The notes under the pieces were generated by a model. That model saw only the letters and a list, made by a program, of their open reading frames with translations. It had not been told where the DNA came from and ran no database searches. From a bacterium (GTDB lineage Bacteria > Hinthialibacterota > Hinthialibacteria > Hinthialibacterales > Hinthialibacteraceae), in the NCBI GenBank assembly GCA_963662285.2, contig CAXXMV010000001.1, positions 736,001 to 800,000 on the forward strand: a stretch of DNA of 64,000 nucleotides, read 5' to 3'. Position 1 is the stretch's first letter, and each line of letters begins with the position of its first letter. The translations under genes were made by a program, and so were the position numbers. Below are positions 46,529 through 49,771 of this stretch, piece by piece.

Positions 46529-47767
46529 CTAATCTAAAAAATTGACAAAAACCTCATTACTTACAGTGACTGCTCGATATGTAAGTCGGAGATAATCTCC
46601 ATTTTGTTCCAGTAAACCATTATCTTCAAGGCGGCTAATTGCTTTTCCCCATTTGTCAAAGGGACTGTAACCGAACCTTCTCTTGAAGCAAGAGGCGGAG
46701 ATTCCCTCCATCAGACGCAAGCCGAAAATCATGGCGTCAGATGCCATCTCATCATTTGATAATTCAACGCGCTCTTCGAGAAGTCCCGCAGTCCAGAAAT
46801 CATGGTTAAAACATTCACTGCGCAGAATCCCGACATAAGTTTCCGGATCACTGATCATAGCATAACTTAGGCGATTAATCATACCGTGAGAGGATGCTCC
46901 AACCGCCAGATAATCATTGCGCCGCCAATAAAGTTGGTTATGGAGGCTCTCTTTGCCAGAACGGCTCCAGTTCGATATTTCATACTGGTTCCAGCCATAA
47001 TCAGCCAGAAAATCCCTACTCCAATCATACATCTTAAGATACGTTTCATCCAGCACAGAGGTTATATCGCCTTGATCAATCAGCAGTTTTAACGGCGTAC
47101 CATCCTCATAGGTCAATCCATAGGCTGAGAGATGATCGGGTTGGCATTCCAGCGCTTTTTTTAATGTATCCTGCCAACTATACAACGTCTGTCCCGGAAG
47201 GGCGAAGATCAGGTCAAGCGAGATATTATCTAATCCCGCAGAGCGGGCGTAATCGATTGCTGTTCTGATATCATTGGACTTATGCACCCGTCCCAGTATT
47301 GCCAACTGGTCATCATCAAAAGATTGCGCTCCAAGACTTACCCGGTTCAATCCATAAGGGAGCAAGGCGGTAAACAGTTCTTCCGATGAACTTTCCGGAT
47401 TGGCTTCAAGGGTAATTTCTGCATCTGCATTTAGTTTAAAATTATTATTTATAGTATCAAAAATCCTGGATAAGCGTGCTATTCCTAAAAGACTGGGAGT
47501 TCCTCCGCCAAGATAGATCGAACATAACTTACGATCTGCAATTTCATTGGCGCCGCACTCAAGATGCTGGCATATTGCATCGACATAGTAATCCATTTGT
47601 TGATCATTATTTGGAACAGAAGAGACAAAGGTGCAGTAATTACATTTGCTGCGGCAAAAGGGAATATGCAGATATAGACCAAGATCAGCATCCGGTGGTG
47701 AAGATGAGTAACTCTCTACACTGTCAGAATTACAGGAATTTGGAAAATTTTTTGCTGATTCTGCCAT
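46529..47767 (-). CDS. hemW: Radical SAM heme chaperone HemW (HemN-like)
   Basis: YLHIPFCRSKCNYC, GGGTPS, EANP, YEISN, HNQLYW. Confidence 0.9.
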   Translation of the reverse strand: MAESAKNFPNSCNSDSVESYSSSPPDADLGLYLHIPFCRSKCNYCTFVSSVPNNDQQMDYYVDAICQHLECGANEIADRKLCSIYLGGGTPSLLGIARLSRIFDTINNNFKLNADAEITLEANPESSSEELFTALLPYGLNRVSLGAQSFDDDQLAILGRVHKSNDIRTAIDYARSAGLDNISLDLIFALPGQTLYSWQDTLKKALECQPDHLSAYGLTYEDGTPLKLLIDQGDITSVLDETYLKMYDWSRDFLADYGWNQYEISNWSRSGKESLHNQLYWRRNDYLAVGASSHGMINRLSYAMISDPETYVGILRSECFNHDFWTAGLLEERVELSNDEMASDAMIFGLRLMEGISASCFKRRFGYSPFDKWGKAISRLEDNGLLEQNGDYLRLTYRAVTVSNEVFVNFLD

Positions 47768-47885
47768 TTCGGGGAAAAAAATTCCTGTTTCAGATTTGCA
47801 TATACAGATATGCAGCGCACTTTTAATCCTAGCAAGTATCGAAGATTAGGCAAGTTAGCAAGAGAATAGGTCACTCTTTTCAAAT

Positions 47886-47901
47886 TGGTACGGCGGTTGC
47901 A
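47886..47901 (+). promoter_or_regulatory. Sigma54 promoter divergent from hemW
   Basis: TGGTACGGCGGTTGCA, near-consensus TGGCACG-N4-TTGCW. Confidence 0.65.
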
Positions 47902-48323
47902 ATTGCCATTGATTGTATACGATTCTGGAAATCGCTTCAAACTAACGGATTTCAGATAGAACTGGCTCTGCACCATAAAATCGGTTAAAGCGCAAGTGCG
48001 GGTGTGGATCAAGCGCAAGTTGGGATTTATGCGAAAACGCAATATCTCTGTCTGAATGAAAAAACTTAATCTCAATTCAGCATCTTTCTGAATGAAAGGA
48101 GCACTGATATTTGAATAGATTTGGTTATTATCAGCCCCAATGGGGCAACGTTATTAAAAACCGTGGCATAGTCCTGGATAGGGACAAGTCTGACTCAATA
48201 TCATTTGTCTAATTTGGATATTTATGATTTTTAATGATTAGATTTATGTTATAAAACGAACTTAATTTAATTATCCGGGGAATTGTCCCGGGGTAAATAT
48301 ATTTGAATATCGCCGGCGATAAA

Positions 48324-48627
48324 TGCCGGAGAAGACACGGAGGTTTTCTCCGGCGTATAAACCGTATTACGCAACATGGGTTGAGGGAATCCATAGACGC
48401 CGACTACGGATTGTAATCGCCTCAGGCGCTTTATATTATCGCGATTGTCAGAATAGTGCGTTTAAACACAGTCTTTTGGCAACCGCATTAAGAGGGCGAA
48501 ACCCAAGTGGGATAGCTATGTCTGCGTAAATGCAACCAAATGATGAATGCGTGACGACGCATCAGCTTTTACATCATTTTTCGCTTATTTTCCACGGAGG
48601 GAAAATCCGGATTGATGAGGAGAAATC
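48324..48627 (+). ncRNA. Candidate structured RNA / 5' leader with CsrA-type GGA loops
   Basis: Hairpins 48324-48355 and 48587-48606 both have loop ACGGAG; long-range helix 48367-48379 with 48516-48529; GGGC-GAAA-CCC element. Confidence 0.45.
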
Positions 48628-49029
48628 ATGAGTAACATTCACAACCAGTTTTATGAGGAAGACCGGCTCAAAAGAAAAGAAGCCTATTTAATGGCCAAGG
48701 GGAATCCATGGCTATTATGGCGCTTACAGGCATTTCGCGCGGGGTATATTCCACCGTTATTGCCGGGAAGCATTCCAGCCGATATGATCGGAATTCCACT
48801 CGGTCCGCAGGATGATTACAATGCGGAACAGTTAGTTAAACACGCCAATAATGTTCGTGTTCGTGAGAAGAGTTATCTGGCCAAGATGTTCACCGTTCTG
48901 GTTATAACCGCGACGCTATTGTTCAGTTTGAGTTTCTTTTTGCATTATAAAACCGGCAGCAAATTCCGCATCCCTATGCTGGATTCCATGTCGCCGCTCA
49001 TGCAGACAAACCAAACATATTCACGTTAA
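48628..49029 (+). CDS. Hypothetical single-pass membrane protein
   Basis: GAGGAG RBS; one TM segment MFTVLVITATLLFSLSFFL; own terminator. Confidence 0.7.
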   Translation: MSNIHNQFYEEDRLKRKEAYLMAKGNPWLLWRLQAFRAGYIPPLLPGSIPADMIGIPLGPQDDYNAEQLVKHANNVRVREKSYLAKMFTVLVITATLLFSLSFFLHYKTGSKFRIPMLDSMSPLMQTNQTYSR

Positions 49030-49054
49030 ACCAAGTACTTTCAATTAAAACATT

Positions 49055-49090
49055 AAATCCCCTGCTTTTTCACATGCGGGGGATTTTTTT
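49055..49090 (+). terminator. Intrinsic terminator
   Basis: AAATCCCCTGC...GCGGGGGATTTTTTT. Confidence 0.8.
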
Positions 49091-49134
49091 ATCAAACTGT
49101 TTTATGTACGACAGGATCGAATTATACCTGGGCC

Positions 49135-49467
49135 TTAACGATTGGCTGCTTTCAATGGTTTGAAGGTTATAGAATAACCAAATGTCTCCAGGATACGCTG
49201 AAGGTTCCTAAAACGAGGATTTCCTGATGAAGAAAGCGTCTTATACAAACTTTCCCGTGAAAGGTTGGTTTTTTTTGCCAATTCCGTCATCCCGCCATTG
49301 GCTTTGGCCACTTGGCGTAACGCCGAAAGCAATGCGCCTTCATCCGGGTCTTTTTCGTACTCTTCAAGGACTGTTTGCAGAAATCCTTCCACTTCTTCCG
49401 GGTGTTCTTTGAAGCGTTCTTCTACAACCTCGTCAAAAGTTCTGTATCTAATCTTCTTTTTGCTCAT
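49135..49467 (-). CDS. Addiction module antidote protein (HI1420-like HTH antitoxin)
   Basis: ALRQVAKA.GGMTELA.KT.LSRESLYKTLS..GNP. Confidence 0.9.
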   Translation of the reverse strand: MSKKKIRYRTFDEVVEERFKEHPEEVEGFLQTVLEEYEKDPDEGALLSALRQVAKANGGMTELAKKTNLSRESLYKTLSSSGNPRFRNLQRILETFGYSITFKPLKAANR

Positions 49468-49771
49468 GATACTGTCTCCAATATATTAACGCCTTTTCAA
49501 TGTCCCGTTTCTGACTGCTTTTGTCACCACCGCACAGTAAAATAACGATCTCGCCACCATCTCTACCAAAGTATACTCGTAATCCCCCATCAAAGAAAAA
49601 ACGTAGTTCAAAAACACCTGCTCCAACACGTTTATAATCACCGAAATTCCCTTTTTCAATACGATAAATTCGGTCGAAAACACGATCTTTCGTCTTTGGC
49701 GCAAGAGAGTTCAACCATTCTGTAAATGGTTCCTTTTTCCTTTCATCTTCAAAAACGCGAATATGAAACAT
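49448..49771 (-). CDS. RelE/ParE-superfamily addiction module killer protein (HI1419-like)
   Basis: PF.EWL..L, RI.RI..GNFGD.K.VG.GV.ELR, G.RVYFG, ILLCGGDKSSQ.RDI..A. Confidence 0.9.
   Translation of the reverse strand: MFHIRVFEDERKKEPFTEWLNSLAPKTKDRVFDRIYRIEKGNFGDYKRVGAGVFELRFFFDGGLRVYFGRDGGEIVILLCGGDKSSQKRDIEKALIYWRQYHEQKED

Follow-up and report, generated by a model that had tools for sequence, protein, structure and literature searches.

Two hairpins with the same loop, ACGGAG, stand in front of a small gene of a flagellated bacterium in the family Hinthialibacteraceae (Candidatus Hinthialibacterota), and the question raised by this locus is what kind of RNA they belong to, and which regulator, if any, they would serve. 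The locus lies in a stretch of 64,000 nucleotides (nt), referred to as the window, from assembly GCA_963662285.2 (contig CAXXMV010000001.1, positions 736,001 to 800,000 of the forward strand); the gene encodes a protein of 133 amino acids (aa). The original prediction, made from the letters of the window, took positions 48324-48627 as a single structured RNA of about 300 nt, either a new cis-regulatory element or a sponge for CsrA, controlling the membrane protein and plausibly tied to the sigma-54/flagellar programme. Comparison with related genomes shifts the emphasis: the conserved core of the finding appears to be the first of the two hairpins (hairpin 1), a near-ideal CsrA site judging from its bases, and the whole may be read as the leader of a small membrane protein gene, transcribed from a sigma-54 type promoter and controlled by CsrA. 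We infer both binding and regulation from sequence patterns, and consider the chances of this reading evenly balanced.

The comparison set included 19 further genomes from the family of the window and 15 from elsewhere in the phylum, besides the genome of the window itself (G000, 7.3 Mb). The main close comparison was with a metagenome relative, L076, whose orthologue is 90% identical to the 133 aa protein. Two covariance models were used: R1, describing hairpin 1 and built from 17 sequences, and R2, describing a pseudoknot located further upstream, for which covariation was counted over 14 sequences. Rfam version 15 was searched at gathering thresholds, along with a permissive scan of positions 47700-49150. 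The phylum was formerly placed in Omnitrophota, and its description mentions flagella (PMC9324843); the terms CsrA and sigma do not occur in that text, within a literature on the motif that was covered in part. Judged from Rfam 15 and this description alone, the leader motif is so far undescribed. The features discussed below are collected in Table 1.

Table 1. Features of the leader and of the gene that follows it, in window coordinates
Feature	Position	Strand	Remarks
Sigma-54 type promoter, TTGGTACGGCGGTTGCA (TTGGTAC-N5-TTGC)	47885-47901	+	GG at 47887-8, GC at 47899-900
5' pseudoknot domain	47913-48015	+	Suggested by covariation; P1, 47932-47942 with 47983-47993; P2, 47964-47972 with 48003-48011
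Leader spacer	48016-48307	+	Poorly conserved
Perfect palindrome, TATCGCCGGCGATA	48308-48321	.	14 nt, directly 5' of hairpin 1
Hairpin 1	48323-48356	+	Candidate high-affinity CsrA site, displays ACANGGAGGU; 5' arm 48323-48336, loop ACGGAG 48337-48342, 3' arm 48343-48356
Middle domain	48357-48586	+	Lineage-specific; predicted multi-branch fold, weakly supported
Hairpin 2	48587-48606	+	7 bp stem with ACGGAG (48587-48593, loop 48594-48599, 48600-48606); candidate CsrA site, forming a pair with the ribosome-binding site
Ribosome-binding site, GAGGAGA	48617-48623	+	GGA at 48619-48621
Gene, 133 aa protein	48628-49029	+	One predicted C-terminal membrane helix
Terminator-like hairpin, ATCCCCTGC / GCGGGGGAT then T7	49057-49091	+	Read from sequence

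Both hairpins are present in the sequence as claimed; each loop is closed by a C-G pair, the two share the 8-mer CACGGAGG, and the stem of hairpin 1 is slightly longer than proposed, with 14 pairs, G-U included, instead of 13. Folded alone, hairpin 1 reaches -23.6 kcal/mol. A scan of the whole genome for C-ANGGAN-G hexaloops on stems of at least 6 pairs returned 41 hairpins, against 12 in reversed-sequence controls: hairpin 1 has the longest stem among them, and hairpins 1 and 2, 256 nt apart, are the only ones in 7.3 Mb to carry an ACGGAG hexaloop on a stem of at least 6 base pairs (bp). Given this excess, and the restriction of the ACGGAG loop to the two hairpins, the observation is real and beyond chance.

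Conservation singles out hairpin 1. BLAST of positions 48300-48640 found matches in 12 of the 19 other family genomes, restricted to the palindrome and hairpin 1 and 81-97% identical, and in none of 21 genomes outside the family. In its own genome R1 has a single strong match (E 2e-16), the next one (E 0.6) lying on the reverse strand at the same place; it matches 16 of the 19 other family genomes, once in each, and none of the 15 genomes elsewhere in the phylum. Each of these 16 matches precedes the orthologue of the 133 aa gene and shares its strand. As for genomes not matched, the contig of G017 stops 178 nt upstream of the gene, and in G001 the orthologue itself was not found; G007 (L025) has both the gene and the 5' domain, while hairpin 1 is replaced by a run of 62 nt with 7 GGA motifs, one of them in CAUGGAGGAUG, which lies some 250-310 nt ahead of the orthologue's start. 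A search of metagenome contigs blind to the gene, using a pattern with 24 exact bases, selected five stretches, and the orthologue follows downstream in all five. The site is 95.9% identical to that of L076, and about 90% conserved across genera whose orthologous proteins are 34-69% identical; its distance from the start codon varies from genus to genus between 30 and 434 nt. A second hairpin resembling hairpin 1, with the loop AGGGAA closed by C-G, was noticed in G019 (L026:1166-1237, minus strand), ahead of the sigma-54 promoter and some 245 nt upstream of the main hairpin; the same sequence is found in L072 and L075.

Alignment of the homologous leaders supports hairpin 1 as a folded RNA. 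Its stem is 93.7% paired across the alignment and covaries at its base, with compensatory changes at 3 pairs (4 according to RNAalifold), and many G-U/A-U exchanges are compatible with the strand of the gene only: one pair is G-U in 9 of 17 sequences, another U-G in 7 of 17. Around the loop, the bases A-C-A, G-G-A and G-T are invariant in 17/17, the second base of the loop varies among C, G and A, and GGAGG is kept in 16 of the 17. The RsmE-hcnA hairpin has the consensus (A/U)CANGGANG(U/A), which hairpin 1, displaying its motif in a hexaloop closed by C-G, fits at every specified position, the organism being an unrelated one. The agreement extends to CsrA itself. According to a 2020 review (PMC7652899), the consensus for CsrA is RUACARGGAUGU; in ligands selected by SELEX, ACA and GGA are 100% conserved and GU is found in all but one, and most ligands are hexaloops closed by AC/GU pairing. 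Hairpin 1 has ACA, GGA and GU in all 17 sequences, within a hexaloop closed by C-G.

At the place of the palindrome adjoining hairpin 1, either the core CGCCGGCG or another palindrome is found in 17/17 aligned genomes, and variants remain palindromic (CGTCGCGACG, CCGCCGGCGG, CGCGCGCG). As an RNA hairpin it is not convincing: it would have 3-5 pairs only, with 84% pairing, and is left unfolded by RNAalifold. Together with the inverted repeat formed by hairpin 1, the palindrome could instead serve as DNA operators, bound by a dimeric transcription factor controlling the divergent pair formed by the membrane protein gene and a radical-SAM gene. The behavior of the palindrome, TCGCCGGCGA, which stays palindromic when changed, would suit this explanation, as would the conservation in sequence of the arms of hairpin 1 and of the radical-SAM gene, kept in 8 of the 9 family loci examined. 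The frequent G-U pairs of the stem, however, would be mismatches in a DNA repeat, R1 scores 71.5 bits on the plus strand against 16.7 on the minus strand, and the distance from the promoter varies between about 60 and 470 nt, so that we regard operators as very unlikely.

If hairpin 1 is a CsrA site, the genome should hold its ligand, and both genes named for this check by the original prediction are there, next to each other: csrA at G000:C1:77513-77770 (PF02599, 89.8 bits at 77521-77679) and fliW at 76993-77349. The encoded CsrA is of the C-terminally extended type, and its best solved relative is 5dmb_D, a chain from a complex with FliW (E 8e-19, alignment residues 2-74).

The flagellin genes of the family, which encode products of 800-950 aa, number 2-8 per genome and are located elsewhere with two-site leaders of their own, offer a term of comparison. 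In 30 of 30 such leaders (L050, L051 and L052 along with 27 further ones, L109-L136) CANGGAGG is found at the ribosome-binding site; 29 of them feature a further GGA 15-26 nt upstream, most often at 22 nt, and 23 a strict C-ANGGAN-G hairpin. The resulting layout is a GGC-ANGGAN-GCC hairpin followed, about 22 nt later, by UUCANGGAGGA at the ribosome-binding site. Flagellin leaders and the 133 aa locus also dominate the intergenic hits of the genome-wide hairpin scan. Two other long hairpins from the same genome, G000:C8:33346 (+) and G000:C8:1294008 (+), have ANGGAU hexaloops closed by C-G on stems of 11 and 13 pairs; both are situated within intergenic DNA or close to it, and CsrA may have additional targets there.

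In Bacillus subtilis CsrA represses the translation of flagellin (hag), whose leader combines a GGA hairpin with a second site over the ribosome-binding site, so that CsrA blocks the ribosome, and is subject to a FliW-type antagonist (PMC7652899). The locus described here resembles it in the adjacent fliW and csrA, in a CsrA closest to the FliW-complex structure, and in the 23 nt between hairpin 2 and the ribosome-binding site, a spacing shared with the flagellin leaders of the family. It differs in that the gene is not a flagellin gene but encodes a membrane protein behind a sigma-54 type promoter, and in that hairpin 1, with its 14 bp stem and a pseudoknot ahead of it, can be as far as 434 nt from the start codon. 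GGA sites in hairpin loops are also found in the multi-site glgC, cstA and flhDC leaders of Escherichia coli, which are bound by CsrA (PMC7652899); the antagonist here would be FliW, not RNAs of the CsrB type. In its product the mRNA does not fit the FliW-CsrA-flagellin module, the 133 aa protein not being a flagellin.

Hairpin 2 with the ribosome-binding site repeats the two-site arrangement of the flagellin leaders. The loop GGA of hairpin 2 and that of the ribosome-binding site are 23 nt apart, and one CsrA dimer can bridge sites separated by 10-63 nt (PMC7652899). Positions 48587-48627 are 100% identical to L076. The match to the CsrA consensus is less complete than for hairpin 1: CA, GGA and the closing C-G pair are present, GU is absent. 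The bases of hairpin 1, and the loop type and spacing shared with flagellin leaders, support the prediction of CsrA-type sites, to which hairpin 2 conforms in part. The seven pairs of its stem are likewise there, yet hairpin 2 does not dominate among local conformers: in the optimum for 48562-48630 (+), at -17.1 kcal/mol, the ribosome-binding site and the AUG are paired to a U-rich tract at 48572-48589, and the best fold retaining hairpin 2 reaches -16.8 kcal/mol, the two being nearly isoenergetic. In the predicted local fold, which competes with hairpin 2, the bases of the ribosome-binding site are unpaired with probabilities of 0.01-0.13.

The transcript would extend well beyond the hairpins. 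Promoters of the sigma-54 type have the consensus TGGCAC-N5-TTGC, with GG at -24 and GC at -12, and a sequence of this type lies 440 nt upstream of the start of the ~300 nt element first proposed. The motif [CT]TGG[ACT]A[ACT]-N5-TTGC precedes the orthologue in 17 of the 18 family loci with enough upstream DNA, and was recognized by eye in all six loci of two sister families; rpoN is present in the genome (199.5 bits). Transcription thus probably starts near 47911-47913, about 415 nt upstream of hairpin 1, which would give a leader of about 715 nt, with 48308-48627 as its downstream part. No RNA run was listed as covering 47800-49100; a run labelled metatranscriptomic (X1), but flagged as probable DNA, yielded three contigs of read length from a relative, at 48312-48469, 48607-48755 and 48781-48921, which are of uncertain kind and do not bear on transcription or its ends. 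The sigma-54 half of the predicted link to flagella thereby gains a promoter. The flagellar half does not share it: neither the sigma-54 motif nor a simple sigma-28 motif precedes any of the 7 flagellin genes, and the idea of a shared transcriptional programme was therefore dropped, leaving CsrA-type sites as the only link to flagella.

Directly downstream of the promoter, the sequences of 14 loci can be folded into a pseudoknot, whose strands follow in the order P1-5', P2-5', P1-3', P2-3'. A conserved single-stranded UUCUGGAAA precedes P1, and CUGGAAA, unpaired and located 5' of P1, shows no variation. Over these 14 sequences 97.1% of cells are paired and both sides change at 11 of 20 pairs, a figure reached by none of 500 shuffles. 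R2 finds one match per genome in 13 of the 19 other family genomes, only at the leader locus, and no match in the 15 genomes elsewhere in the phylum; the copy in the window scores lowest of all (67.8 bits) and carries mismatches. Its covariation makes the pseudoknot a well-supported structured RNA, corresponding to no Rfam family. In 14 of 18 loci some 14 nt separate its start from the promoter; in four family genomes and in the metagenome stretch L073, where it is missing, the promoter lies 63-90 nt before hairpin 1, which argues that one transcript carries all elements. No intrinsic terminator was found by scanner between pseudoknot and hairpin 1; a hairpin at 48275-48293 was considered for this role and rejected, being followed by a weak U tract only.

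Compared with L076, the leader is a patchwork. The stretch with promoter and pseudoknot (47886-48060) is 77% identical, the spacer (48061-48300) 43% with large indels, and the middle domain 91.8%, with no substitutions at all in 48357-48438. Since the gene itself is 69.9% identical at third codon positions, the middle domain is evidently under selection. A second pair of relatives repeats the pattern: 95.7% for the pseudoknot, 62.8% for the spacer, 98.4% for palindrome and hairpin 1, 85.2% for the rest of the leader, 74.6% for third codon positions.

The multi-branch structure seen in the middle domain by the original prediction is weakly supported. The closing helix and the GGGCGAAACCC element do appear in the minimum-energy fold; the small hairpins at 48376-48394 and 48401-48419 do not, although the GGA motifs assigned to them exist (48386 and 48408), as does that of the ribosome-binding site. 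The z-score of -4.54 for 48300-48640 is not evidence for the middle domain, because it is mostly carried by the two hairpins: alone, the domain has z = -2.10, with 4 of 200 shuffles folding as well, and its reverse strand -1.92, with 5 of 200. Judged against the predicted fold, the 19 differences from L076 include a single compensatory pair (2 changes), 3 changes after which the pair persists as a wobble, 10 at unpaired positions and 4 which break pairs, two of these in the closing helix itself. In other genera the domain was not found, unrelated sequence of 30-430 nt taking its place; partial similarity is limited to G017. The idea of one conserved structured RNA of ~300 nt, or a new riboswitch, is therefore not supported: the middle domain is best taken as a lineage-specific, selected addition, and not as a widespread motif.

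A riboswitch could still be sought elsewhere, with the pseudoknot, or less probably the middle domain, as an aptamer sensing a ligand and controlling the fold of the ribosome-binding site, in which case the GGA hairpins would be parts of the structure. The pseudoknot covaries strongly and has conserved unpaired bases, the ribosome-binding site and the AUG are predicted to be paired with the U-rich tract, and the substitution-free part of the middle domain would fit as well. Against it, 4 of 18 family loci, and L073 as well, lack the pseudoknot but keep the gene and hairpin 1; between pseudoknot and hairpin 1 lies an unconserved spacer of variable length, which implies no fixed expression platform; and the middle domain, confined to close relatives, folds hardly better than its reverse strand and has four breaking substitutions. 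At gathering thresholds Rfam returned nothing for the window, while the permissive scan gave noise (E 0.75-10); 13 related loci had no relevant match either, and the compact leader of L023 had none with E up to 1. All considered, a ligand-sensing riboswitch is unlikely, and the leader does not look like any known riboswitch class.

The likeliest reading is control by CsrA, which could work as follows. Hairpin 1 would be the high-affinity entry site for a CsrA dimer, antagonized by FliW, which would then bind hairpin 2 and the ribosome-binding site; bound CsrA would block the access of ribosomes. Synthesis of the membrane protein would in this way follow the flagellin/FliW/CsrA checkpoint, while sigma-54 would set its transcription.

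Various observations weigh against this reading. Being present in 35 of 35 genomes of the phylum, csrA is not discriminating evidence. The 8-mer CANGGAGG of the flagellin leaders is not rare genome-wide (338 occurrences versus 312 in the control). SELEX ligands have mostly 4 contiguous pairs or fewer (PMC7652899), against the 14 bp of hairpin 1, a stem much stabler than is typical of them, both arms of which are moreover conserved in sequence more than pairing requires, which suggests a further constraint. Hairpin 2 is confined to the window and L076, and the local ensemble as predicted leaves the GGA of its loop largely base-paired (probability unpaired 0.13-0.15). A GGA at -18 to +6 of the start codon is found in only 8 of the 17 leaders with hairpin 1: together with the 30-434 nt spread in distance, this means that a single mechanism, bridging hairpin and ribosome-binding site, cannot hold family-wide. 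Downstream of hairpin 1, in the same 17 leaders, GGA is not enriched (73 versus 69.5 expected, reached by 150 of 500 shuffles), nor is ANGGA (21 versus 17.8). In view of the variable distance, of the few GGA at start sites and their lack of enrichment, of the stability of the stem and of the restricted occurrence of hairpin 2, hairpin 1 may act as an entry site, or else through mRNA stability or termination; 5'-proximal CsrA sites can indeed act on mRNA stability (PMC7652899).

The same stability raises the question whether hairpin 1 could do its work in the absence of CsrA, by stabilizing the mRNA, by offering a 30S standby site or by acting as a decoy ribosome-binding site. Together, its loop and the first bases of the stem spell GGAGGU, which matches the anti-Shine-Dalgarno sequence in full; a stem of this strength at a variable position, with GGAGG in nearly all loops, would fit a stability element, and its 3' arm contains UUUCUCC, which can pair with GGAGAAA at the ribosome-binding site of the window. 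The STAB-SD element of cryIIIA protects its mRNA from 5' decay, and a stable hairpin early in the leader could do likewise. Mimicry of a ribosome-binding site, however, needs neither the invariant ACA nor the C-G closure, both of which are determinants of CsrA binding; in most genomes hairpin 1 lies 150-430 nt from the predicted start of the transcript, and not at its 5' end; and the flagellin leaders of the family use the same type of loop in the classic CsrA layout. We thus grant this explanation a small chance.

Similarly, the RNA might have a second function in trans, as a decoy titrating CsrA from flagellin mRNAs. It shares GGA in hairpin loops with sponge RNAs such as CsrB and RsmY and has two loops of the high-affinity type; some leaders of the family are rich in GGA (15 in 271 nt in G010, 20 in 428 nt in G006, besides the 7 in 62 nt of G007), and the flaA mRNA of Campylobacter jejuni is termed dual-function in the title of PMC4894983. 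In contrast to those sponges, which have many sites, are non-coding and match known families, the leader offers one or two strong sites per molecule, GGA is not enriched over the 17 leaders, Rfam returns no hits, and the RNA fronts a protein gene under purifying selection, with no separate terminator between them. The sponge foreseen by the original prediction is therefore not what the leader looks like, and a role as decoy appears highly improbable.

A combination of elements is conceivable, in which the new sigma-54-transcribed pseudoknot would be the sensor of a ligand or protein, set before the high-affinity CsrA hairpin as a hitherto undescribed post-transcriptional gate with two inputs: the mRNA would obey the FliW-CsrA checkpoint and, in turn, titrate CsrA back. 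We consider this quite unlikely. If true, it would place an RNA antagonist beside FliW in one organism, a question listed as open in the 2020 review of CsrA (PMC7652899).

The gene served by the leader is real and subject to purifying selection, as indicated by its identity to L076 at first, second and third codon positions (95.5/94.7/69.9%). Orthologues in the same order are present in 18 of the 19 other family genomes and in all six genomes of two further families, and were not found in the phylum's three remaining families, represented by 9 genomes. The protein matches no Pfam family, and NCBIfam gave only scattered single-member hits, with E 0.012 or worse; in a protein atlas search the best score was 0.78, below the usable range. 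Its AlphaFold model is helical (pLDDT 71, pTM 0.36). A frame of 68 aa at 48323-48529 was discarded as a possible leader peptide: it matches no family, and relatives do not preserve its start codon (ATG, TTG, GTG, CTG, ATA). Given the terminator-like hairpin downstream, the gene looks monocistronic; the 10 nt loop of this hairpin is above the limit of the terminator scanner, and noise-level Rfam hits to terminator-bearing families fall on the same positions.

Upstream, the divergent radical-SAM gene (46529-47767, minus strand) is HemN-like, and is kept also in the sister families. On the other side, a gene pair at 49135-49771 (minus strand) resembles a toxin-antitoxin module, comprising a Gp49/DUF891-like protein (49448-49771) followed by a helix-turn-helix antidote-like protein (49135-49467). 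In G003, the orthologue is closely followed by a D1-D4 fragment of a group II intron (L101:2028-2186, plus strand), which matches RF02005 with 68.9 bits.

The leader has a narrow range, one family of Candidatus Hinthialibacterota, which limits its wider impact. If control by CsrA is true, the flagellar checkpoint would reach a target other than flagellin in an uncultured phylum, and the 133 aa protein would become a candidate motility- or envelope-related factor.

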